Shown here: positions 1 to 12,197 of the stretch, in pieces
Numbering within the stretch: the first letter of the stretch is position 1
Layout: every line of letters starts with the position of its first letter
IMG/VR virus record: IMGVR_UViG_2778261689_000011
Coordinates: 1 to 12,197 of that record
Reading direction: 5' to 3' (one strand)
Source of the DNA: a virus
Lineage: Duplodnaviria > Heunggongvirae > Uroviricota > Caudoviricetes
DNA length: 12,197 bases
Notes under the pieces: generated by a model
What the model was told of the DNA's origin: nothing
Databases searched by the model: none
Seen by the model: the letters and a program-made list of their open reading frames with translations, nothing else
Made by a program: the position numbers and the translations under genes

Positions 1-3000
1 GTTACCAGCAGCGTTAACGGTGATGGTGTGTCCATGTGAACCAATCGCAACGGAGTGCGTATGAGCACCAATACCGACAGTATGCGCGTGTGCACCTGCG
101 CTTGCAGCAGTGCCGGACAGTGAGTGGGTATGTGCGCCAGCAGATGATGTTGCATAGTTTTGATTATGCACAACAGACAATCTTGTTGATGCACTACCAG
201 CACCGGAGTTAGCACTAGCCGTGTTCACGTTGGCTAGTGAGTGTGTGTGTGCTCCAGCCGAGTTTGTAGAGCCGCTCACACTGTGTGTATGTGCCCCGGT
301 GTTATTCGTGGATTTAGTGCCGTAATCAAACGACGATGTGGTTTTCGTCCCCAAATCTGTACTGGATGCGCTGGCGCTGTGGGTATGCGATTTAATGCCG
401 TCCTGTTCCTGAGACAATACGGCCCGACCACTGGCAGGTTTGCCCTTAATCGTCCAGCCACGCATATCAGGGATCACGCCTGACGGATAAGCGGCTGCAA
501 GTTTCGGGTAAGCAGATTTGTCAAAAGCCTGCCCCTGCATCAGGGCATAACCAGACGGAACGGTATCTGATGGCCACGGGATTGGTGCGCCGACTGGGTA
601 GCTTTCTGGTGGAAGATTTTTCGAGGTATAAACTTCTGCCCAGTCTTCCTCAAAACCATAACCGTCTCTTGAAGAACGGTAGAACAGACCACCATTTCTG
701 TAATGCGCCTTCATCTGCAGGGTCCGGCAACTTCCGACTCCGGTATAGAAGTTAACCAGAATATAGCTGTCGCCAGAGCGGGTGACATTGTAAGCGCCTG
801 ATTCGGCATTCCATGGAACGCCACCATCCGCATCGGCATATGTATCCGTTGCCCTTCTGGCAAAAGCAGCCACATGCGCGGCGGTTAAAGTAATATCTTT
901 GGAACCATCAAACTCAACACCAGAAACCCGTCTTGGCGTTTGCAGCTTTGTTGCTGTTAATGCATTACCGTTCAGACTTGCGGACAGTTTGGTTCCAATA
1001 ACCAGTTCGCCGGTTGCGTTATCAATAGCAAACGGTCTTAATGTATTCCAGCCACCATAAACATCACCTTGATTGGTAAGCAGCAGGTAAGTTTTAGCGC
1101 CATCATTACGCCATAATGCACCATACTCCCCACCTATCATTCGAATCTGATTACCACCACGCGCTACAATTTCGTCTGTGGCAAAAAGTTTTTTGCACGA
1201 CAAGTTATCGTTAACGATTAACGAATGAGACTCATAAAAACCACGCCCACTCTTAAAATCAAGGATAACGTCCGCCGCGATACATTCAGTCGCCGGATTT
1301 GTTGCCCCAAACTTATAGGTCGTATCATTAACAACGAGATCAGCACCAGGTGCGGATATTGACAGGCCATCTTCAATAAACGCAAAAACAGGGAAAGCAG
1401 CGCCATCAACATAGAACACAGAGCGCAAATCATCGCCCTTATTACTCATCATTATTGAGTGAATGGCTCGTTCATTGTTTTGATATTGCCAGAACATGCC
1501 ATAAGCATAACGCCCCCTGTCAGTCCAGCCACCAGGCATAACAAATCCGTTAAACTCGCAGTTATTCATCGGATCGCCTGCGGTTCGCGTTGCCGTGGTG
1601 ATAATGACTCTTGATGCCAGTTCGCTTACTGAGCCAGCAGAACGCATAACAACAACAGGGTAATATTTTCCAGATGTTGCACCTGCAGGAGCGTTAACCC
1701 GCACATAACGCATACCACGCTTATCAGCAAAGTCTGTTTTACTGACCGCGTTAATGTTGTTCAGGAAGCATCCCTTATCGGGTATATCAGCGCCGTTCTG
1801 GTCTTTCTGCAGACGTTTCTCTGCATTGTCATAGGCTGATTTTACTGCCTTTGGCGTTGCCGCCAGCGTTTCAGACGTACTGTTGGTCGCACTGCTGAGC
1901 TGTACTATCCCCTTTTTCGTCGTACTTGCATCCTCAAGCGCCACGGCGGATGCAATATCCTCTGCCCGTTTAGCTGCTGTCTCGGCGCGCGTTGCCGCGG
2001 ATTCCGCCGTACTTTTGCTCTGAGCTGCCGCCGTCGCACTGCCAGCAGCCTCTGTCGCCTTCGTGGATGCCGTCGTGGCGCTGCTCTTCGCTGCTGACGC
2101 TTGTCTGGTCGCCTCATCTTTTGAAGCAGACGCCGATGATGCCGATGACGCCGCCGAACTGGCTGACGATGCGGCAGCCGTTTTTGAGGATTCTGCGCTT
2201 GTTTCCGACGCTTTCGCGTTCGTTTCGGATGTCTTCGCTGCGGAAGCAGACCTCGCTGCTGCGCTGGCCTGTTCAGTGGCTTCGCCAGCCTTCGTTGTGG
2301 CTGTTGAAGCAGACGATGCGGCGCTTTCTGCCGATTTTCCGGCGGCGGTGGCACTGGCTGAGGCCTGCCCGGCACTTGTTGACGCTGCACTGGCAGACGA
2401 CGCAGCCGCTGTTTTTGAGCCTGCCGCAGCCGAGGCGCTCTGTCCCGCTGCCGTTTCAGAAGACCTGGCGTTCGTCTCGGACGTTTTTGCCGCCTTCGCG
2501 GAATTTCCTGCCGCCGTTGCCGAGGAAGCTGCACTACTGGCGCTTGATGATGCGTTCGTTTCTGATGATTTTGCCGCTTCTTTTGAGGCCGCCGCATCCC
2601 GGGCCGAGGTCGCAGCTTCTGATGCCTTCGTGGTCGCGGTGGATGCAGATGTGGCTGCTGATTGTTGTGACGCTGAAGCATTCGTTTCTGACGTTTTCGC
2701 CGCACCGGCACTGGTGGCCGCCGCGCTTTTTGAGGACTCTGCAGCGGCAGCACTTTTTGATGCTTCAGTGGCCTTTGTTGATGCCGTTCCTGCGCTGGAA
2801 GACGCTGACTGAGCCGACGACGCGGCCTGTCCGGCTGACGTGCTGGCTGCGCGTGCTGAGTCCGCAGCATCAGCCGCATGGGTTGCCGCCTCACGGGCTG
2901 ATGTGCTGGCATCACTGGCTGACTTCTTCGCGGCTGCCGTGTTCTGTGCCACCGCGGACGCGTTACGCGCCACCTCTTCCACCATCAGTTCAAAACGGCG

Positions 3001-3309
3001 CAGTGCCTCCGGACGGGCATCATCCTCCGTCATGGCACCGAGAAAATCATTCAGCGTACCGGGTTGAGAATCTTCATACACGGTAATGGTCCCGGCATGT
3101 GACGGCGGGAATCCTTCCACCAACAGAATAACGCTGTACTGACCGTACTCAACGTCCATGCTGTAACGCCCGGCTTCATCCGGATTTTCTGAGGCCAGCG
3201 TGTTCACCACCACCGTGGTGCTGTTACGTTTTGCTTTCAGCTGGATTGTGCAGTTCTGTACCGGTTTTCCTGTGCCGTCTTTCAGTACACCTGAAATCTT
3301 TACTGCCAT
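1..3309 (-). CDS. stf: Side tail fiber protein (lambda Stf / Rac StfR-like); ATG at 3307-3309; open in frame to position 1, so the C-terminus lies beyond the window (about 1103 codons present)
   Basis: Minus-strand translation from 3309 gives [20 protein letters not shown]..., matching the lambda Stf N-terminus as recalled. Spot translations at 2941-3000 ([20 protein letters not shown]), 1441-1500 ([20 protein letters not shown]) and 1-120 ([23 protein letters not shown]) are all in the same frame with no stop. Putative SD GGGGTG upstream. Absent from the ORF track only because no stop falls inside the window. Confidence 0.9.
22..385 (-). repeat. Seven HxH motifs (SHTHS, four GAHTHS, GAHAHT, GSHGHT) in the Stf C-terminal region
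   Basis: Direct translation of the minus strand over 1-390: ...KSHTHSAS...[24 protein letters not shown]...[44 protein letters not shown]. Visible on the plus strand as recurring gtgtg(t/c)gc units. Confidence 0.8.
1950..2975 (-). repeat. Ala/Ser/Thr-rich low-complexity repetitive tract (about 340 aa) inside Stf, with recurring KTSETNA / [10 protein letters not shown]-type units
   Basis: GC-rich GCN/TCN codon repetition; translation at 2101-2160 gives [20 protein letters not shown]. Several reading frames on both strands are open across this tract, producing the spurious ORFs 1905..2915(-), 1992..3086(+) and 2063..2812(+). Confidence 0.8.
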
Positions 3310-3319
3310 ATTCACCCCA

Positions 3320-3347
3320 CAAAAAAGCCCGCCTGAACCGGCGGGCT
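3320..3347 (-). terminator. Rho-independent terminator downstream of the lom remnant and directly upstream of stf
   Basis: 8-bp stem agcccgcc (3326-3333) / ggcgggct (3340-3347), loop tgaacc, followed on the minus strand by TTTTTT (complement of 3320-3325). Confidence 0.6.
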
Positions 3348-3373
3348 GTCATAACACTGTGTTACCTGGCTAA

Positions 3374-3563
3374 TCAGAACTTATAACCGACACCCACGAT
3401 GAAACCGTCAGTGCGCCAGTCGCCACTGCCGGAGCCTTCATAAGCAATATCAATGGCCACGGATTCGGTCGGGTTAAACTGCACGCCAGCTCCCCACGCC
3501 AGAGACGTGTTGCTGTGGCGACCGTCATCACTTCCGGTCAGCACGTCGTGCGTTTTCCCCTTG
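3374..3563 (-). pseudogene. lom: Lom/Ail/PagC-family outer membrane protein, C-terminal fragment of about 62 aa, interrupted by the IS5-family element
   Basis: Minus-strand translation ...KGKTHDVLTGSDDGRHSNTSLAWGAGVQFNPTESVAIDIAYEGSGSGDWRTDGFIVGVGYKF-stop, matching the Lom C-terminus as recalled. The ORF-track 153-aa ORF 3374..3835 continues into antisense IS sequence and is a hybrid artefact. Confidence 0.75.
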
Positions 3564-5538
<1,975 letters not shown>

Positions 5539-5550
5539 TTATTAAAACTC

Positions 5551-5583
5551 CTGACAACAAAAAACCCACCGCGAAGTGGGTTT
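5551..5583 (-). terminator. Rho-independent terminator between the ParB-like remnant region and the tape-measure fragment
   Basis: Stem aaacccac (5562-5569) / gtgggttt (5576-5583), loop cgcgaa, followed on the minus strand by TTTTTGTTGTT (complement of 5551-5561). Confidence 0.55.
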
Positions 5584-5703
5584 CAGGCGACATAATAGTA
5601 GATATAGCGATTACGAGGCCACGCAATGCTTTTCTCCAGGAGCATCATCGATTTAATTAAAGACACCATCACATCTCTGTAACAGAGTGTACGTAATTAA
5701 CAA

Positions 5704-5937
5704 CTACACACACTGCTCCTGAAAATACTGGTCATCCAGTGCAAAGATCACTGCTTCAAATTCATCGCGCTCAATCAATACCGGATGAGTGGCTAAATAT
5801 TCATTTATCTCTGTCAGAGATAAAGGCAAAGGCACCCCAGCCATTCCAGCATAACGTCGGGCACGGGATATTACCGAATAGGCGTACAACAACTCCTTAA
5901 GCACCGGGTCTATTTCTGGTTCCGGTATCGGTGGCAA
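5704..5937 (-). CDS. Hypothetical 77-aa ORF; possibly a third fragment of the decayed ParB-like gene rather than an independent gene
   Basis: ORF-track ORF; its first codon is TTG (complement of 5935-5937), and the first in-frame ATG is about 30 codons in. No recognisable motif. Confidence 0.25.
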   Translation of the reverse strand: MPPIPEPEIDPVLKELLYAYSVISRARRYAGMAGVPLPLSLTEINEYLATHPVLIERDEFEAVIFALDDQYFQEQCV

Positions 5938-6011
5938 CCTGAGTTTTTCTCGCTTCCATCTTGCCTTTTCCCCCCTTTCTCCCCCGAACTCCGATAACCA
6001 CCGCTGGGCAG

Positions 6012-6371
6012 CTATGGCTTTTTTATCGTATCCTGCTTCTGCTGCTCTTTACCCTGGGCGATGCTGGCTGCTTCTGCAAGGATCTGCCAGTACAACTCTG
6101 GATTCTGCTTAAGCAGCGCGATCCCTCGTTCTGCCGTATATTCCAGTGCAACCTCAACACCATTAACCAGTTCACCAACCCCTTTCCAGTCTTTCAGCAG
6201 ATAACGAGCGGCATTATCAATGAGTAAATCATCAACAGAATCCACCTCGGAAACCTTTGAAATATCAAACTCCTTCGTTCCGACGTGCAAACTGGCATCC
6301 ATTTTCTCAATGTGGCGACGGATTAATGCATTACGGGAGCGATACTGATCGTTATCGCTGCTTCTGCTCAT
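6012..6371 (-). pseudogene. YdaY-like ORF (119 aa); probable C-terminal portion of a frameshifted ParB-like nuclease-domain protein
   Basis: ATG at 6369-6371 overlaps the 3' end of the upstream ParB-domain ORF (6352..6615) by 20 nt in a different frame. Together with 5704..5937 the three ORFs tile about 900 bp. Confidence 0.55.
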
Positions 6372-6615
6372 CCGTCAGGCCAGACAGAACAATGACCGGA
6401 ACAGAATCCATTTTGAGCATTTCAGCCGCCATAACACGACCGTGACCCGCAATAATTTCGCCCTTTTCGTCAATCAGCACCGGATTAGTCCAGCCGAATT
6501 GCTTAATACTTTCTACCAGTTGTGCCACCTGCTCAGTACTGTGCGTCCTGGCGTTGTGCGCATACGGTGACAATTCTTGTAATGGGCGATAGACTATCTT
6601 TAATTTCTCGCTCAT
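6352..6615 (-). CDS. ParB-like nuclease N-terminal domain protein (87 aa, YnaK-like)
   Basis: Translation MSEKLKIVYRPLQELSPYAHNARTHSTEQVAQLVESIKQFGWTNPVLIDEKGEIIAGHGRVMAA... carries the ParB N-terminal signature (NPR-like box plus the G-x-x-R segment). ATG at 6613-6615. The ORF ends at the ParB TDEQKQR motif with no downstream half in frame. Confidence 0.7.
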   Translation of the reverse strand: MSEKLKIVYRPLQELSPYAHNARTHSTEQVAQLVESIKQFGWTNPVLIDEKGEIIAGHGRVMAAEMLKMDSVPVIVLSGLTDEQKQR

Positions 6616-6629
6616 ACAGCCTTGCTTTA

Positions 6630-6666
6630 TGAATAAAACGCACCCCAGCAGCCAGTGCTACTGGGG
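6630..6666 (-). terminator. Possible intrinsic terminator downstream of trkG
   Basis: Stem ccccag (6643-6648) / ctgggg (6661-6666) with a large 12-nt loop, followed on the minus strand by gcgTTTTATTc. Weaker than the other hairpins. Confidence 0.3.
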
Positions 6667-6752
6667 ACGGAGGTGTTGCTGGTAAAGTTAGGTATTGGAT
6701 CAATGAGTGAGTCAACATAATATTAAACTCACAATTATAAATCAGCCATATA

Positions 6753-8210
6753 TTAGGAGCGCCAAAAAAAACCTGAAAACAATATAATAACAGGATAAAT
6801 TTCAAGGCGACCAAGAATCATAGCTATGCACATTAAGCATTTTGCAATGTCATTAAGCACTCCGAATGACGATGCAGTAGCCCCAAAACCTAATCCCATA
6901 TTATTAATACATGCAGCCACTGTTGCAAATGATGTAAGAAAATCATATCCCATACCATTTAACACCAGTATAAAAAACACCGTGAAGAGAGTATAAAGAA
7001 AAAAGAAACTCCATACAGACCTCATTACACGATCTGTAACTATCTTCCCTCCTACATTTACACTCAACAACGCTCTGGGATGAGAAAGCTGATTTATCTC
7101 GTGTTTGCTTTGTTTGAAAAGTATAAGAAATCGAAGTGACTTAATTCCACCACAAGTTGAACCTATACATCCCCCAAAGAAACTTGACAACAGCAAAAAC
7201 ACTATCGTGTGCGTGGGCCAACTTGCATAATCCTGCGTAGCTAAACCATTATCAGTGAGCATGGAGCTGGCAAGAAAAAACGAATGAATAAAACTTCCAT
7301 GCAAGTCATACATACCTATATGCCAGACCTGGAAAGAGGTAACAATGATCACCCCTAAGGCTATTAACAGAAAGAAACGAAGTTCAATATCTCTGATTAA
7401 AGGTTTTATCGTTTTCCTGCTAATAACAATATACCAAAGAGTGAAGTTGAAAGCCGATAGCAGGGAAAAAGAACCAGCCACCAGCTCAACCAAATAGTTA
7501 TTAAAATATCCGATACTCTCGCTATGAGTTGAGAAACCACCAAGCGAAACTGTGGAAATCCCGTGACAAATAGCATCAAACAAAGGCATTCCTGCAAGTC
7601 TATAACAGACAATACAAGCAATACCTAATAAAGAATAAGTTATCCACAGTGTCCGTGACGTATCGGCCAGGCGGGGAGTGAGTTTGTCATCCTTAAATGG
7701 CCCCGGCATTTCTGACTGATAAAGCTTTGCACCACCAATACCCAATAATGGCAATACAGCAACCGCCAGAACAATAACTCCTAAACCACCTATAAAATTT
7801 AACTGTGACCGATAGTACAAATATGCCCGAGGTAATGAACTAACATCATCAATTACAGTTGCTCCTGTTGTTGTTATTCCAGAAACCCCTTCAAACAGAG
7901 CATCAATGAACGTTAAATTAAGTTCTGAGTCAATCCATAAAGGGAATGCACTAATAACAGAAAACAAAATCCAAAACATTACAATTATAATAAACCCATC
8001 ACGGGTACGTAATTGAATGCCAGATTTCTTAGTTGTATACCACGCTCCGCCACCAATGCAAAAAAATATAACGAAAGTTATAAAGAAAACAAACAGGCTT
8101 TTTTCTTTATAAAACAATGCTACAACCATTGGTGGCAACATTGAAAGACTATAGAGCCAAACCAGGAACCCACACATATGAGTAACAACTCTTACATGAG
8201 ATGTATTCAT
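6753..8210 (-). CDS. trkG: Trk-system potassium uptake protein TrkG (TrkH-family membrane transporter), a prophage moron
   Basis: Translation MNTSHVRVVTHMCGFLVWLYSLSMLPPMVVALFYKEK... is polytopic and hydrophobic, matching TrkG as recalled. The ORF-track start at 8228 is a TTG; the first ATG is at 8210. Markedly AT-rich compared with its neighbours. Confidence 0.9.
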   Translation of the reverse strand: MNTSHVRVVTHMCGFLVWLYSLSMLPPMVVALFYKEKSLFVFFITFVIFFCIGGGAWYTTKKSGIQLRTRDGFIIIVMFWILFSVISAFPLWIDSELNLTFIDALFEGVSGITTTGATVIDDVSSLPRAYLYYRSQLNFIGGLGVIVLAVAVLPLLGIGGAKLYQSEMPGPFKDDKLTPRLADTSRTLWITYSLLGIACIVCYRLAGMPLFDAICHGISTVSLGGFSTHSESIGYFNNYLVELVAGSFSLLSAFNFTLWYIVISRKTIKPLIRDIELRFFLLIALGVIIVTSFQVWHIGMYDLHGSFIHSFFLASSMLTDNGLATQDYASWPTHTIVFLLLSSFFGGCIGSTCGGIKSLRFLILFKQSKHEINQLSHPRALLSVNVGGKIVTDRVMRSVWSFFFLYTLFTVFFILVLNGMGYDFLTSFATVAACINNMGLGFGATASSFGVLNDIAKCLMCIAMILGRLEIYPVIILFSGFFWRS

Positions 8211-8347
8211 ATCTAAATATTCTTTCAATTATAACCACCTTGCTGCAATATTATGATTATACTGTATAAAATTTAACTCCTCTTAGATCTTACTTCACTG
8301 TTCCTTATGAAACAATCATCAAAATGAATCATATTGTAGTTAAGATT
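8211..8347 (-). promoter_or_regulatory. AT-rich intergenic region between Rz and trkG; probable autonomous trkG promoter region
   Basis: 137-bp AT-rich spacer; the minus strand contains TATAAT-like hexamers (cagTATAATcat and ggtTATAATtg) shortly upstream of the trkG ATG. No confident -35 element. Confidence 0.3.
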
Positions 8348-8812
8348 TTACTTTAAACACTGCTCGGTTATGTATTGCTGAGCACCTTCAAGTTGGGCCT
8401 GCATCATTACCAGTCGTTCCCGGAGGGTGAAATAATCCCGTTCAGCGGTGTCTGCCAGTCGGGGGGAGGCTGCATTATCCACGCCGGAGGCGGTGGTGGC
8501 TTCACGCACTGACTGACAGACTGCTTTGATGTGCAACCGACGACGACCAGCGGCAACATCATCACGCAGAGCATCATTTTCAGCTTTCGCATCAGCTAAC
8601 TCCTTCGTGTATTTTGCATCGAGCGCAGCAACATCACGCTGACGCATCTGCATCTCAGTAATTGCCGCGTTCGCCAGCTTCAGTTCTCTGGCATTTTTGT
8701 CGCGCTGTTCTTTGTAGGCGATGGCGTTATCACGGTAATGATTAACACCCCATGACAGGCAGACGACGATGCAGATAACCAGAGCGGAGATAATCGCGGT
8801 TACTCTGCTCAT
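8348..8812 (-). CDS. Rz: Rz i-spanin (inner-membrane spanin subunit)
   Basis: Translation [51 protein letters not shown]... is near-identical to lambda Rz as recalled. The ATG at 8810-8812 overlaps the R stop as ATGA. Confidence 0.9.
8407..8592 (-). CDS. Rz1: Rz1 o-spanin (outer-membrane lipoprotein), embedded in the +1 frame of Rz
   Basis: Translation [57 protein letters not shown]...: lipoprotein signal with lipobox Cys and a proline-rich mature part, lying entirely within Rz. Confidence 0.85.
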
Positions 8813-9285
8813 ACCTCAATCTCTCTGACCGTTCCGCCAGCTTCTTTGAATTTTGCAATCAGACTGTCAGCCTTATGCTCGAACTGACCATAACCAGCGC
8901 CCGGCAGTGAAGCCCATATATTGCTGCAACGGTCGATAGCCTGACGGATATCACCGCGATCAATCATCGGCAAAGAGCCACGCTCTTTAATCTGCTGCAG
9001 CGCTACAGCATCCTGACTTTCTGGAGAAAAATCTTTCAGGCCAAGTTGCTTGCGGTAGGCATCCCACCAGCGTGAAAGAAGCTGGTAACGTCCAGCGGCT
9101 GTTGATTTGAGTTTCGGATTTAGCGTGACAAGTTTGCGGGGGTGATCGGAGTAATCAGTGAACAGTTCGCCACCGACAATAACATCATAACCGTGATTTC
9201 TGGTTTTCTGCCGTCCGTTATCTGTTCCTTCTGACCATGCCACCATATCAAGGAAAGCTTTACGCTGGGAATTAAGTGTCTGCAT
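8809..9285 (-). CDS. R: Endolysin R (lambda-type lytic transglycosylase), 158 aa
   Basis: Translation [61 protein letters not shown]... is near-identical to lambda R as recalled. SD AAGGAG 6 nt upstream of the ATG at 9283-9285. Confidence 0.92.
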
Positions 9286-9288
9286 TAA

Positions 9289-9630
9289 TTACTCCTTATG
9301 GGCACCGAACTTGTTACCGATGACCCTCATTGCCGCACCACGAATAGCATCAACACCAATCAGCCCCACCCCACCACCAATGGCAACAGAAAGTGATTTA
9401 GGCCATCCGACATACTCAAGCGCGGATGCAAAGGTCAGCGTCAGAGCACCACAAAGCAGAATCTCAAGCGTTTTTCGTTTCCAGCCGCCGCCACCGCCAA
9501 AATAGGCAATGCGCAAACCAGCCATAATAATTGACATAACCACTGCACCCAGCGGCGTATCTCCACGCCACCAACTTTGTAAGAGTTCCAGTAAGTCAGG
9601 CCAGGAATGAGGGGCATTGTGCATTTTCAT
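9289..9630 (-). CDS. S: Class I holin with an N-terminal Met-Lys-Met dual-start motif (lambda S-like arrangement)
   Basis: ATG-AAA-ATG at 9630-9622 (minus strand) preceded by SD GGAGGTGA; an in-frame GTG lies 3 codons upstream (9639). Hydrophobic segments, a Gly-rich stretch and a charged C-terminus. Sits immediately upstream of R with a 3-nt gap. Confidence 0.8.
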   Translation of the reverse strand: MKMHNAPHSWPDLLELLQSWWRGDTPLGAVVMSIIMAGLRIAYFGGGGGWKRKTLEILLCGALTLTFASALEYVGWPKSLSVAIGGGVGLIGVDAIRGAAMRVIGNKFGAHKE

Positions 9631-9723
9631 AAGCCTCACCTCCGAGAGTTCGGATGGTGCTAAGTGTAAGATTCAGGCTCTCAGGCTTGCTAACAAGAAG
9701 TCGAGGATGTTTCCGGAGCCTAA

Positions 9724-9753
9724 CAACGAAAAAGCCCCGGGACATGCCGGGGT
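9724..9753 (-). terminator. Rho-independent terminator immediately upstream of the holin (downstream of the moron)
   Basis: Stem ccccgg (9735-9740) / ccgggg (9747-9752), loop gacatg, followed on the minus strand by cTTTTTcgttgtt. Confidence 0.6.
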
Positions 9754-9847
9754 CAGATGGAGTGCCAGATTAAGCTTCTGGCGGTATATACTCGTGTTTG
9801 ATATCGTTAAATCGCCAAAAGTAACAATTCAAACAAAGAGGATTTTT

Positions 9848-10009
9848 ATGTCTGAAAAAAACAAGCCACAAGATGAAAATAAACCTCAGCAACCCGTGGC
9901 ACCAAAACCAACTCCAACACAAAGTACTACAGACTTTGCTACACGTCGTGTTTTTGTTGGAGATTCTGCCGACTCAGTCATTGAACATATAAAAAAACAG
10001 CCGAGATAA
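9848..10009 (+). CDS. Hypothetical small protein (53 aa), hydrophilic and Lys/Pro/Gln-rich; convergent with the moron and overlapping its 3' end by 32 bp
   Basis: ATG at 9848 preceded by SD AAAGAGGA with a 5-nt spacer; TAA at 10007-10009. Translation MSEKNKPQDENKPQQPVAPKPTPTQSTTDFATRRVFVGDSADSVIEHIKKQPR. No family recognised; it could be non-coding or antisense. Confidence 0.3.
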   Translation: MSEKNKPQDENKPQQPVAPKPTPTQSTTDFATRRVFVGDSADSVIEHIKKQPR

Positions 10010-10547
10010 ACATCGCCGCTACCGGAGCAAGGATGGTATACATCCTTGCTTTATCGAGACTCGTGCGGATTTTCTCATTTTCCAACAGTAACTCTCTTGC
10101 TGTATCACTCAAGTCAACAAGGCGATACCTTCGTATAAGCGGCAATAACTTATCAGGTCCTAAATATCCTGCATCAGCGAATATTTTAAAGCTCGAGGGC
10201 TCCATATCCTTATATTTTTCATGATATAGATGATCAGGAGGGGCATTGATCAGGCCCCTAACCTTCACAGATAAACCAGTACATACCAAGTAAATGGCGC
10301 ACCATGTCCATAGTAATGTAAATGTGGTAATTCCGGCGGTGAGAAAATCGAAATTAGTTTTCTGTGTCAGCAATAAAAAAGATGAACCAATTCCAACAAT
10401 CTGAATGTTCAGAAGTTTGTATCCATTCTCAACATTGGTTTTGTTAGAAAGATGAATCTCTCGTATCGTCTCTTCCCCTTGTTTTTCAAGATAATCGACG
10501 AGCTCATCATCTACTCCTAAAAAATAATCTTTAGGTAGTTCTCTCAT
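9978..10547 (-). CDS. Uncharacterised membrane protein (189 aa) encoded by an AT-rich moron inserted between the Q antiterminator and the holin
   Basis: ATG at 10545-10547 with SD GGAGGT immediately upstream; 570-bp ORF in AT-rich DNA. Predicted hydrophobic helices at roughly aa 70-95 and 170-189. Terminators on both sides (10655-10685 and 9724-9753). No family recognised. Confidence 0.6.
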   Translation of the reverse strand: MRELPKDYFLGVDDELVDYLEKQGEETIREIHLSNKTNVENGYKLLNIQIVGIGSSFLLLTQKTNFDFLTAGITTFTLLWTWCAIYLVCTGLSVKVRGLINAPPDHLYHEKYKDMEPSSFKIFADAGYLGPDKLLPLIRRYRLVDLSDTARELLLENEKIRTSLDKARMYTILAPVAAMFISAVFLYVQ

Positions 10548-10654
10548 CTCACCTCCACATCCTGTACTGAAAACAATTTTACCAGAATGTCTCGATTCTA
10601 GGTATTCCGCCAGGAATCGCGCTCCAGAAATGAAACATCAGGTTCGCCAGTACC

Positions 10655-10685
10655 AGAAACAACAAAACCCGCTCAATGGCGGGTT
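10655..10685 (-). terminator. Rho-independent terminator about 85 bp downstream of the Q gene (tR'-like position)
   Basis: 7-bp stem aacccgc (10666-10672) / gcgggtt (10679-10685), loop tcaatg, followed on the minus strand by TTTTGTTGTTT. Confidence 0.6.
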
Positions 10686-10768
10686 CTGGTAAAGTTCATG
10701 CGCTTGGTTCGCCTCGCGATACAGCTTTGCGAAGCATACCGGAATTGAAGCAGTTTATGCGTAAAAAA
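10686..10768 (-). promoter_or_regulatory. Putative late promoter (pR'-like) and Q-utilisation region between the Q stop and the first terminator
   Basis: Position only: in lambdoid phages pR' and qut lie directly downstream of Q and upstream of tR'. Candidate minus-strand hexamers (TTGATT ... TTCAAT) are weak and not confidently assignable. Confidence 0.3.
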
Positions 10769-11311
10769 TCAAGCTATTTTTTGAGCAAATGATTCTCGCA
10801 TGGGAATATATAGGGCATACTCAGCAACAGCCAACCAATTAGCAATTCGCTTTTCGCATGTGCTAAAACACCACTCAGGATGTGCATCATTTAGCAATTC
10901 AGCCATTTTGCGCTTAGTCATCCCCCGTCCTTCATACCGTTGCCGGAGGACACTAATCAATCCAGGATGCTCTGCCAGCACCTCACTTATGACTCTATCA
11001 ATACATAACGCCTCTGCATCAGTACAATGCGCCAGCCAGGTCTTTTGCTTGCCATTGATCATCTCTCGCAAAAACGCTTCCAGCTCAGGTTTCTCTATTC
11101 CCGCTTTTTTCATCCTGCGCAGGGCTTCATTGACGGCTGTTTTCGTCAATTTTTTGGATGCCAGCAACTGGTTAAACATATTTCCCGTCTTACCGCCGCC
11201 AATATACGACCAGCGCCCCCACATGCGCAGTTTTCCCTGAATCCAGACACTTTCCAGCGTGGTGAGACGAAGGTGTTCCCCGCTTTTGCCTGTATTTGTT
11301 GGGTAAATCAT
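10769..11311 (-). CDS. Putative late-gene antitermination protein Q (non-lambda Q family), 180 aa
   Basis: ATG at 11309-11311 with SD AAGGAAGG, overlapping the upstream gene's stop as ATGA. Lies between the YbcO-like nin gene and the terminator/lysis cassette. N-terminal ...LRMWGRWSY... resembles the LE(K/R)WG-W motif of Q21/QuuD-type antiterminators. Family assignment from memory and position only. The ORF-track start at 11431 would overlap the upstream gene and is unlikely. Confidence 0.6.
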   Translation of the reverse strand: MIYPTNTGKSGEHLRLTTLESVWIQGKLRMWGRWSYIGGGKTGNMFNQLLASKKLTKTAVNEALRRMKKAGIEKPELEAFLREMINGKQKTWLAHCTDAEALCIDRVISEVLAEHPGLISVLRQRYEGRGMTKRKMAELLNDAHPEWCFSTCEKRIANWLAVAEYALYIPMRESFAQKIA

Positions 11312-11598
11312 AAATAACCTTCCTTTCTCCAGATTTCTTGTGTGCGAAAAACACCTTCTGCATGCATCAGGCGTAATTCTTCTTTGGTGTAATCGCTGGT
11401 TTTTACCCGCCCGTCGATTAAATCGTGGCATGAGCTACAGGCAATCGCTGCCTGCATATCGTGTGGTTTTGTCGCTGTTCCGCACGTCCCCGCCAGCCTG
11501 TAATGCGCCAGCACAGAGGTTTCGGGATTGTGATTGCAGTAGCCAGGGATTCTGATCTGGCACATCTGGCCTTTAGCCGCTTTACGTAAATTCACCAT
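11308..11598 (-). CDS. YbcO-like DUF1364 protein (putative zinc-binding nuclease of the lambdoid nin region), 96 aa
   Basis: Translation MVNLRKAAKGQMCQIRIPGYCNHNPETSVLAHYRLAGTCGTATKPHDMQAAIACSSCHDLIDGR... with the Cys pattern and CQ(I/V)RIPG motif recalled for YbcO. ATG at 11596-11598 overlaps the upstream stop as TAATG. Confidence 0.8.
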   Translation of the reverse strand: MVNLRKAAKGQMCQIRIPGYCNHNPETSVLAHYRLAGTCGTATKPHDMQAAIACSSCHDLIDGRVKTSDYTKEELRLMHAEGVFRTQEIWRKEGYL

Positions 11599-12197
11599 TA
11601 CGCAAACTCCAGTAGTTGTGCGGCCACATTTTCAACTTCCTCCTGAGAGGAGAATTTACGGAACAGAATCCAGTTCCACAGCACATTCAGAACAGATTTA
11701 TAAACCTGCTGAAACTCGGTTTCGTCCATATTCGCAAACGCGATGGATTTCGCCCTGCGCCCACGGCTACCTTCCGGATAAATATGCTCGGTGTAAAATC
11801 CGGCCTGAATGGTTACCCACTCGCGGAAAGCCTCAAACGACTTTAGCAATGCCGTATCCCGAGTTCTGCGTGTCGCAACTGTATTTAGATATTGCTCTGC
11901 GGCATCACTCAGGGCTGGTGTGTGTTCCCGACCAACTGATTCGCACAAGTAATCCACGAAACCAGACAGCAGTTCTCGTTCGCGAGGTGTGATCGCCCCA
12001 CCGACCGGAGTCCAGTAATCGAATCCCAGTTGCAGGAGTTTGAAAAAACGCTTGTGGAATGCGTAGTTACGCACACGCTTAAAGTCTGCGTGTATCCACT
12101 CACCTATTTTGATTTGATGCAGAAAATCGCAACTCTCCGGCGTCGCCGGGAGAAGTAAACCAGAAGAGGTTTGTTTGACCAGTTGTATATGCGCCAT
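11598..12197 (-). CDS. Lambdoid nin-region protein, possibly DUF1367 family; the start codon coincides with the window edge, so the 5' end may be truncated
   Basis: 199-codon ORF ending TAA at 11598-11600, tightly coupled to the downstream gene. ATG is the complement of 12195-12197 at the very end of the window. Family assignment is tentative, from gene order and recollection. Confidence 0.65.
   Translation of the reverse strand: MAHIQLVKQTSSGLLLPATPESCDFLHQIKIGEWIHADFKRVRNYAFHKRFFKLLQLGFDYWTPVGGAITPRERELLSGFVDYLCESVGREHTPALSDAAEQYLNTVATRRTRDTALLKSFEAFREWVTIQAGFYTEHIYPEGSRGRRAKSIAFANMDETEFQQVYKSVLNVLWNWILFRKFSSQEEVENVAAQLLEFA

Follow-up and report, generated by a model that had tools for sequence, protein, structure and literature searches.

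A probable deletion scar beside trkG in the late operon of Rac, a cryptic prophage of E. coli

Introduction

The 12,197-nucleotide stretch of DNA analysed here (the window, at its full length) raises the question of what became of its packaging and head genes. Reading leftwards on the minus strand, the lysis cassette is followed not by terminase, portal and capsid genes but by the potassium transporter gene trkG, three short open reading frames (ORFs) and a tape-measure fragment. Did trkG and its neighbours take over the place of a missing head module, or did they lie there before the module was lost? The comparisons described below indicate that the interval is, with high probability, a deletion scar within the late operon of Rac, a defective prophage.

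Results

The window is the late region of Rac

Sequence comparison showed that the window is 100% identical to E. coli strain L9, and that its bases 1-8792 are about 99.9-100% identical to Rac of K-12 MG1655. The L9 prophage is flanked by ttcA/intR on one side and by pinR/ydfK on the other; integration beside ttcA, together with intR, recET and trkG, is characteristic of Rac. The window thus represents the late region of Rac, the cryptic prophage of E. coli. Rac of K-12 (trkG, ynaK, ydaY, ynaA/tmpR, lomR::IS5, stfR) shares with the window the parB-ydaY junction, the tape-measure/lom junction and the IS5 insertion site. The two differ in that the S, R, Rz/Rz1, Q, YbcO and DUF1367 genes, which K-12 has lost, are still intact in the L9-type variant, while 366 bp kept by K-12 (the IS5 right end and adjacent lom sequence) are gone from the window. 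With a coverage threshold of 80%, 9 of 5426 genomes have the L9-type variant. The lysis genes of the window are as follows.

9289-9630, minus strand: holin gene (S); Pfam Phage_holin_3_1, E 2e-27
8809-9285, minus strand: endolysin gene (R); phrog_90, E 2e-63
8348-8812, minus strand: Rz spanin gene, the final gene of the lysis cassette and upstream neighbour of trkG; Pfam Phage_lysis, E 6e-53
8407-8592, minus strand: Rz1, embedded in Rz; E 2e-19

These Pfam and PHROG matches agree with the lysis cassette (holin, R, Rz/Rz1) named in the original prediction. Rz is 97.7% identical to lambda Rz over 8812-8423, beyond which the homology stops. K-12 matches the window no further than 8792, which means that S, R and the beginning of Rz have been lost from its Rac. 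A 189-aa protein encoded between Q and S had no match in PADLOC, and an Rfam scan of the whole window returned no family at threshold.

No terminase, portal or capsid gene was found among the ORFs of the window or in the annotated L9 prophage from intR to pinR, the stretch in which such genes could still have been present outside the window; more complete relatives do have them. Judged by this gene content, the element is a cryptic prophage predicted to be incapable of packaging DNA or building a head, as had been proposed from the window. That Rac is defective is already known, and for decades it has been a textbook example of such a prophage. The presence of trkG in Rac, its position there and its low GC content have likewise been published (PMC9898762 and a 1991 reference cited there).

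trkG and parB are in their native position

Near-identical, more complete prophages have the gene order Rz-trkG-parB-glycosyltransferase-terS-terL-portal-head-tail. Window positions 6362-12197 correspond to bases 21156-15321 of ON470614 ("vB_EcoS-666R9") and positions 4604-6363 to bases 34474-32717. ON470614, ON470595 and an E. ruysiae locus (L007) share the Rz-trkG-parB order and 98.4-98.6% identity on the flanks of the scar. They differ from the window in keeping 11.56 kb that comprise the parB 3' end, the TAGT glycosyltransferase gene, terS, terL, portal and head genes, the major tail gene and the chaperone 5' end; head morphogenesis, scaffold, major head and tail proteins were identified in the relative among the genes deleted here. 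The order Rz-trkG-parB-TAGT recurs in 76 of the 80 viral loci with a full-length parB. The ON4706xx entries are PHASTER-predicted prophages rather than isolated virions, so the viability of the ancestral form is an assumption, and ON470614 itself stops inside the tail-tip genes. On this comparison, the ancestral order would have been Q, S-R-Rz/Rz1, trkG, parB-like gene, glycosyltransferase, terS, terL, portal, head morphogenesis, scaffold and major head, continuing with connector genes, major tail, chaperone G/GT, tape measure, tail tip, lom, stf and tfa.

The trkG region itself comprises three features.

8211-8347, minus strand: AT-rich spacer upstream of trkG, 25.5% GC; presumed trkG promoter region
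6753-8210, minus strand: trkG, intact gene for a 485-aa TrkH-type K+ transporter subunit, phage cargo (moron)
6643-6666, minus strand: terminator-like hairpin 3' of trkG, on the downstream border of the insert

TrkG matches Pfam TrkH (PF02386) over its full length (E 5e-145, 484 bits against a cutoff of 27, profile positions 3-500 of 502) and is RefSeq WP_001097895.1, the identical accession in K-12. The gene had been described as AT-rich, and a GC comparison confirmed this: trkG has 38.1% GC and 32% GC3, against 47-52% GC in the flanking phage genes. The downstream hairpin (6666-6643) has a predicted energy of -22.5 kcal/mol (z -3.35), and none of the shuffled sequences folds as well. A consensus scan gave a promoter-like match at 8357-8328; we claim no promoter from it, because such matches in the region are no more numerous than in shuffles. 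In four relatives that lack trkG, homology to the window ends at 6638 or 6658, so 23-43 bp before parB starts, and the upstream edge of the insert is bracketed between 8348 and 8423. The gene thus differs in composition from its neighbours, and some close relatives lack it at this site. The concept of such morons reportedly goes back to Juhala et al. in 2000. Like them, trkG is a single gene of deviant GC between two late-operon genes, with a hairpin on its 3' side, and is missing in some close relatives; it differs in that its upstream boundary is a mosaic junction at the Rz 3' end and its promoter is a presumed one. We propose that trkG was a low-GC moron already lying between Rz and parB before decay set in, with an AT-rich upstream region and a downstream hairpin of its own. 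Transcription of trkG has been reported to be autonomous and H-NS-modulated, with partial repression by H-NS, and transport activity of TrkG is published (PMC9898762). The gene would accordingly supply the lysogen that expresses it with a working, TrkA-dependent, Na+-stimulated K+ uptake subunit. The closest non-Escherichia relatives of trkG that were found, in Buttiauxella (68% at the amino acid level) and Morganella (62%), have the GC content of their own flanks; they are therefore taken as chromosomal residents and were rejected as donors. No low-GC donor was identified by an exact peptide-word scan, a method that can miss relatives.

The foreign composition of trkG (38% GC), together with its location where lambda has its terminase genes, might suggest that trkG, along with parB, arrived when the head module was lost or later and took that module's place, for example as a displacing island. 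However, in the 76 viral loci, ON470614 and ON470595, trkG stands at this very site and is followed by intact terS, terL, portal and head genes, and the deletion ends within parB, 390 bp past the stop codon of trkG. We consider such a replacement very improbable. trkG and parB are in their native position and are not substitutes for a head module, so the earlier view that they occupy the packaging and head position does not hold.

A junction joins a ParB-like stub to a tail assembly chaperone gene

Downstream of trkG, the three short ORFs and their surroundings resolve into the following features.

6364-6615, minus strand: parB-like 5' part, the first 254 nt (84 codons) of a phage gene of 263 codons
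6362-6363, unstranded: deletion junction, where the two sides share AA (2-nt microhomology) and 11,560 bp of ancestral prophage are missing
6012-6363, minus strand: chaperone G 3' part, 352 nt; ydaY ORF 6012-6371 starts at a parB-derived ATG
6018-6024, minus strand: slippery heptamer A_AAA_AAG in the ydaY zero frame, two codons before the stop; predicted -1 programmed frameshift site
5704-6018, minus strand: chaperone T part, the -1 frame extension, open for 104 codons and containing ORF 5704-5937
5561-5584, minus strand: terminator-like hairpin between chaperone and tape-measure genes (scan match)

The three ORFs are contiguous on one strand, the first two overlapping by 20 nt, and it had been suggested that 6352-6615, 6012-6371 and possibly 5704-5937 are pieces of one ParB-like nuclease gene decayed by frameshifts. 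The first ORF is indeed ParB-like: it has the ParB N-terminal domain (PF02195, 31 bits against a gathering score of 26.3), matches phrog_620 (E 3e-43), is colinear with the ON470614 parB gene up to base 21156 and, in a PDB sequence search with the ParB part, matched only Spo0J/ParB N-domains. The other two ORFs have no ParB match in Pfam or PHROGs; the second matches the phrog_313 chaperone family, and the third matches phrog_1189 and, weakly, chaperones. Moreover, the 3' part of parB in the relative (bases 21157-21694) is a different sequence, and the homologues of the other two ORFs lie 11.5 kb off, beside the tape-measure gene. Alignment, PHROG profiles and the junction comparison together refute a single decayed ParB gene, to which we give next to no credence. 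In PADLOC, the sole match of the ParB stub was to the N-terminal, ParB-like portion of a type II methyltransferase model, which does not point to a defence system.

The junction was located from blastn break points and by comparison with both parental sides. On one side of it lies parB, broken at codon 85, and on the other an internal part of the chaperone gene; the ynaK ORF (6352-6615, 87 aa) extends three codons beyond it. Of the 5426 complete genomes, 348 have the same junction; where other genomes match one half only, the match breaks off exactly at the junction base. A collapsed or mis-joined contig might in principle give the appearance of a missing head module; nothing specific speaks for an assembly artefact of this kind, whose chance is negligible given that the 348 genomes were finished independently and include K-12 MG1655. 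A real deletion is the preferred reading. GPEC1405 was considered as a second carrier of the ydaY breakpoint and rejected, as its deletion ends 26 bp away. We propose that one illegitimate-recombination event with the 2-nt microhomology removed the 11,560 bp, joining parB codon 85 to nucleotide 111 of chaperone G. The ynaK chimera would then consist of 84 ParB codons plus three out-of-frame codons, and the ydaY chimera of an ATG from parB plus the last ~116 chaperone codons.

On the chaperone side, ydaY matches phrog_313, "Tail assembly chaperone" (E 7e-37); a PDB sequence search with full-length YdaY gave nothing significant. The full-length gene in ON470614 encodes 153 aa and lies between the major tail and tape-measure genes, and the G part of the window is without its first 37 codons. 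All 78 related viral loci, which reach down to 70% nucleotide identity, have A_AAA_AAG in frame at the homologous position; in 75 of them the -1 frame stays open over 100 codons or more. The predicted G-T fusion would be 222 aa long in the window, against 256 aa in the more complete relative. Extending the query to the fusion moved the end of the phrog_313 match from profile position 149 to 246 of 258 (E 1e-41), and the fusion also matches phrog_8233 (E 3e-8); Pfam Phage_TAC_18 matches the T part weakly (E 3e-4, 21.2 bits, below the cutoff of 27). Profiles and reading frames together identify ORFs 6012-6371 and 5704-5937 as the G and T parts of a lambda G/GT-type tail assembly chaperone, joined by a predicted -1 frameshift. 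As with lambda gpG/gpGT, the pair, in the window and in the relative, lies directly upstream of the tape-measure gene, has two overlapping frames, a heptamer just before the G stop and a T extension of about 100 codons. The lambda slippery heptamer is G_GGA_AAG, compared with A_AAA_AAG here, and membership in the window rests on PHROG 313/8233 and the sub-threshold TAC_18 match, with no similarity to lambda G claimed. The terminator that had been placed before the tape-measure fragment corresponds to the hairpin at 5584-5561, which at -16.1 kcal/mol (z -1.86) is only modestly more stable than shuffles; it appears to be inherited, because this stretch and its counterpart in the more complete relative are 98.6% identical.

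A probable second deletion cuts the tape-measure gene

Further leftwards, the window contains the remains of three more elements.

4604-5538, minus strand: tape-measure 5' part (ynaA/tmpR), 935 nt of a 3234-nt gene; Pfam TMP_2, E 4e-17
4508-4603, unstranded: internal lom fragment, 96 bp, matching GPEC1405 lom
3564-4507, unstranded: IS5 lacking its right end; only the left inverted repeat was found, whereas K-12 has both

The tape-measure fragment is colinear with the ON470614 gene from the start codon, and this alignment and the TMP_2 match uphold its earlier identification. A second deletion, with IS5 and the lom fragment (3564-4603) as its left edge, would have joined tape-measure nucleotide 935 to lom, which also carries IS5.

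Selection for cargo is plausible for trkG

The original prediction further took the retention of certain functions (lysis genes, trkG and the tail fiber) to suggest selection for host-beneficial cargo. For trkG, this is consistent with a dN/dS of 0.047 against the E. albertii copy, a sign of strong purifying selection, and with genome counts: among 5426 E. coli genomes, trkG is present in 1539, the parB 3' part in 944 and terL-portal in 738, so that at least 801 trkG-positive genomes are without the Rac terL-portal block, a lower bound as the counts were not joined genome by genome. Together with the published activity of TrkG (PMC9898762), these values make selection for cargo a reasonable reading for trkG, which may have been selectively retained. 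The case does not extend to the lysis genes, which K-12 Rac has lost, or to the tail fibre.

A broader reading is that lysis cassette, trkG and tail fibre were all kept for the benefit of the host, that is, that the whole remnant has been domesticated. It draws on trkG being under purifying selection and functional (PMC9898762), on its being commoner than the parB 3' part and terL-portal, and on at least two independent deletions, those of the window and of GPEC1405, that spare it. However, K-12 Rac does without S, R and the Rz start, and non-functional tape-measure, chaperone and lom fragments persist equally. Divergence below 2% is too low for detecting constraint on genes other than trkG, and TrkG is redundant with TrkH, while its Na+ uptake can harm (PMC9898762). 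Domestication of the whole remnant is therefore possible but rather unlikely. Selection for cargo is plausible for trkG only; for everything else neutral persistence is equally possible, since useless tape-measure, chaperone and lom fragments have been retained too.

Discussion

A 2026 screen reported that ynaK overexpression raised the MIC of six antibiotics (PMC12924614). The chimeric ORFs, YnaK as an 84-residue ParB N-domain stub and YdaY as a truncated chaperone with a borrowed start, might accordingly have host functions rather than being inert debris, which we regard as a long shot; if true, YnaK would be a deletion-generated mini-protein acting as a tolerance factor. Because ynaK is a ParB stub, its reported phenotypes are better read as truncated-domain effects.

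The discovery value of these results is small, and their practical value lies in annotation. K-12 ynaK, a ParB stub, and ydaY, a 5'-truncated chaperone with its frameshift site preserved, would both be products of one deletion, and ORF 5704-5937 can be annotated as belonging to the predicted T part of the chaperone. The ordered counts (trkG 1539 > parB 3' part 944 > terL-portal 738) offer a simple quantitative picture of prophage decay around retained cargo.

Identity of the element

In a megablast of complete E. coli genomes with the full-length window as query, several strains, including L9 (NZ_CP142044), were 100% identical across all 12,197 bases. Positions 1-8792 were also ~99.9-100% identical to K-12 MG1655, C600, J53 and other laboratory strains, in which the matching genes are annotated as stfR, lom::IS5, ynaA (tape measure), ydaY, ynaK, trkG and rzoD. 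This stretch is the Rac prophage. The whole L9 element is bounded by ttcA/intR and pinR/ydfK, and no gene for terminase, portal or capsid is annotated between these limits. The packaging genes that could have spoken against a cryptic prophage are therefore not found elsewhere in it. The original observation is real and its reading as a cryptic prophage is right, but the element is already well known. The features concerned are as follows.

9289-9630, minus strand: S-family holin
8809-9285, minus strand: endolysin
8348-8812, minus strand: Rz
8407-8592, minus strand: Rz1
6753-8210: trkG, full-length TrkH-family protein (E 5e-145)
6666-6643: terminator-like hairpin (-22.5 kcal/mol, z -3.35)
6352-6615, minus strand: ynaK, ParB N-terminal domain (Pfam, PHROG)
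5584-5561: terminator-like hairpin (-16.1 kcal/mol, z -1.86)

An 11,560-bp deletion removed the head module

Ten "phage" records in GenBank share this trkG region, as do many contigs in IMG/VR. The more complete Rac-type prophage ON470614 (PHASTER-predicted, not an isolated virion) carries, in order, Q, S, R, Rz, trkG, a parB-like gene (263 aa), a TET-associated glycosyltransferase gene, a small ORF, terS, terL, portal (DUF4055), head morphogenesis protein, scaffold, major head protein, five small genes, major tail protein, YdaY (153 aa), a 61-aa ORF and the tape-measure gene. Window 6362-12197 aligned with its bases 21156-15321 and window 4604-6363 with bases 34474-32717, both blocks at 98.4-98.6% identity; at 6362/6363 the window thus lacks exactly 11,560 bp (ON470614 21157-32716). 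The parB parent reads GATGAGCAGAA before the crossover and AAAGG after it, the ydaY parent GGTGGCAAG and then CAGCGAT, and the window GATGAGCAGAAGCAGCGAT. Because AA alone is common to both parental sequences at the crossover, the sequence indicates illegitimate recombination. A probe of 300 bp with the junction at its centre was covered at ≥80% in 348 of 5426 genomes, and in other genomes the match stops at exactly the junction base.

parB is reduced to its first 84 codons, to which ynaK adds three foreign-frame codons and a stop. YnaK, which has been regarded as a ParB-like nuclease-domain protein and whose overexpression raised the MIC of six antibiotics in a 2026 screen (PMC12924614), is thus a stub of 84 residues that the deletion left from a phage protein of 263 aa. 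In Rac-type prophages that are more complete (L003, 20903-22619), the parB-like gene, of which the window keeps the 5' 254 nt at 6364-6615, overlaps the glycosyltransferase gene, and the pair lies directly upstream of terS. The glycosyltransferase matched Pfam TAGT (E 1e-34) and PHROG 842 "beta-glucosyl-HMC-alpha-glucosyltransferase", and PGAP names it "GREB1-related"; no TET/JBP gene was seen beside the pair. The pair, which seems uncharacterised, may be a DNA-modification module.

ydaY and its -1 frame resemble lambda G/GT

The proposed ParB-like gene in overlapping frames held only for ORF 6352-6615. ORF 6012-6371 (ydaY) matched PHROG 313, "tail assembly chaperone" (E 7e-37), with no match to ParB in the Pfam and PHROG scans, and ORF 5704-5937 is the -1 frame of that chaperone. 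The ydaY ATG and next two codons are parB-derived sequence in another frame; the remainder, ~116 codons, is the end of a 153-codon gene that stands before the tape-measure gene in ON470614. A_AAA_AAG lies in the ydaY zero frame (window 6024-6018), two codons before the stop, and the -1 frame after it is open for 104 codons (chance ~0.007 by the simple estimate (61/64)^104), leading straight into ORF 5704-5937. The predicted -1 fusion, of 222 aa in the window and 256 aa in the more complete relative, carries the PHROG 313 match on from position 149 of the 258-position profile to 246 and improves PHROG 8233 from E 4e-3 to 3e-8; the T part alone gave a sub-threshold match to Pfam Phage_TAC_18. 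The in-frame heptamer was found in 78/78 related viral loci, some at only 70% nucleotide identity, and the -1 frame was open for ≥100 codons in 75 of them. The two ORFs thus show the arrangement of lambda G/GT, with a predicted frameshift, and are not ParB debris.

Beyond the predicted terminator, now seen as the hairpin at 5584-5561, lies the expected tape-measure fragment: ORF 4510-5538 begins with the first 311 codons of that protein, whose gene is cut at nucleotide 935; at 4603/4604 it is fused to 96 bp from the interior of lom. The lom IS5 (within window 3564-4603) has the left inverted repeat only. Compared with K-12, 366 bp are missing, namely the right 252 bp of IS5 including the right inverted repeat and 114 bp of adjacent lom, so transposase ORF 3632-4642 terminates in foreign sequence; RefSeq nevertheless annotates it as an intact IS5 transposase.

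trkG lies in its native position

The trkG products of the window and K-12 share one RefSeq protein accession. The gene is AT-rich as predicted, at 38.1% GC (GC3 32%; upstream spacer 25.5%) versus 47-52% in neighbouring phage genes. Its low GC and Rac location are already on record, as are its partial repression by H-NS and the ability of TrkG to replace TrkH (PMC9898762). The suggestion that trkG and parB stand in place of head genes is refuted: 76/80 IMG/VR loci encoding full-length ParB have the order Rz-trkG-parB-glycosyltransferase, usually with terS and terL next, and the position of trkG is native. Four relatives lack trkG and have other lysis genes and cargo in place; their homology to the window ends at the downstream hairpin, 23-43 bp before parB starts. 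Lambda Rz homology ends at 8423, and the E. albertii copy is homologous to window 6749-8390. In its behaviour trkG is thus a moron that entered between the lysis module and the packaging module ahead of the decay.

In E. albertii NBRC 107761 (L008, 5819-7462), TrkG is 93% identical (84% nucleotide identity, 38% GC). The gene lies near copC/copD, pphA and rsmF, with only short holin-like ORF remnants upstream; having no Rz or parB neighbours, the cassette has independently moved or been stranded. In one trkG-less relative (L079, 1878-3096), two ORFs lie upstream of the lysis genes: one for a pertussis/heat-labile-toxin-like ADP-ribosyltransferase A subunit and one that is B-subunit-like, both as read from translations only.

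Lysis genes, other cargo and selection

Pfam and PHROG scans bore out the minus-strand lysis cassette. Between Q and the holin, the interval where toxin genes sit in Stx phages, a low-GC stretch (~40%) encodes a predicted 189-aa membrane protein (9978-10547, minus), with no match in Pfam or PADLOC and PHROG 11870 (function unknown) as its sole match.

Elsewhere in L9 (L001), truncated recE abuts ydaU (37389-40200), so the immunity region (racR, ydaS, ydaT, sieB, kilR, racC) is deleted. Joint loss of the repressor and toxic ydaS/ydaT fits the reported essentiality of racR (PMC5700373), and may also explain tolerance of the intact Q-S-R-Rz cassette. Between the DUF1367 and DUF977 genes (31011-35185), a cargo block resembles a candidate anti-phage defence island, with DUF1971, a SIR2-family protein, a non-canonical purine NTP pyrophosphatase, adenosine deaminase and a TetR regulator; in GPEC1405 this site holds transporters.

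Of the genomes, 1539 have full-length trkG, 944 the parB 3' part, 738 the Rac-type terL-portal block and 348 the 6362/6363 junction. The packaging block is therefore absent from at least 801 genomes with trkG, a lower bound since the two counts come from separate tallies, not genome by genome. GPEC1405 carries an independent deletion from the portal gene end into ydaY, 26 bp from the window breakpoint. Preferential retention of trkG fits these data but is not proven, because the counts are unjoined per genome and useless fragments persist too. The proposed selection for cargo is only partly supported. K-12 Rac lacks S, R and the beginning of Rz, so the lysis genes are not consistently retained. 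For trkG the proposal is plausible: dN/dS of the E. coli copy against that of E. albertii is 0.047 (dS 0.93), so trkG has been under long-term purifying selection.
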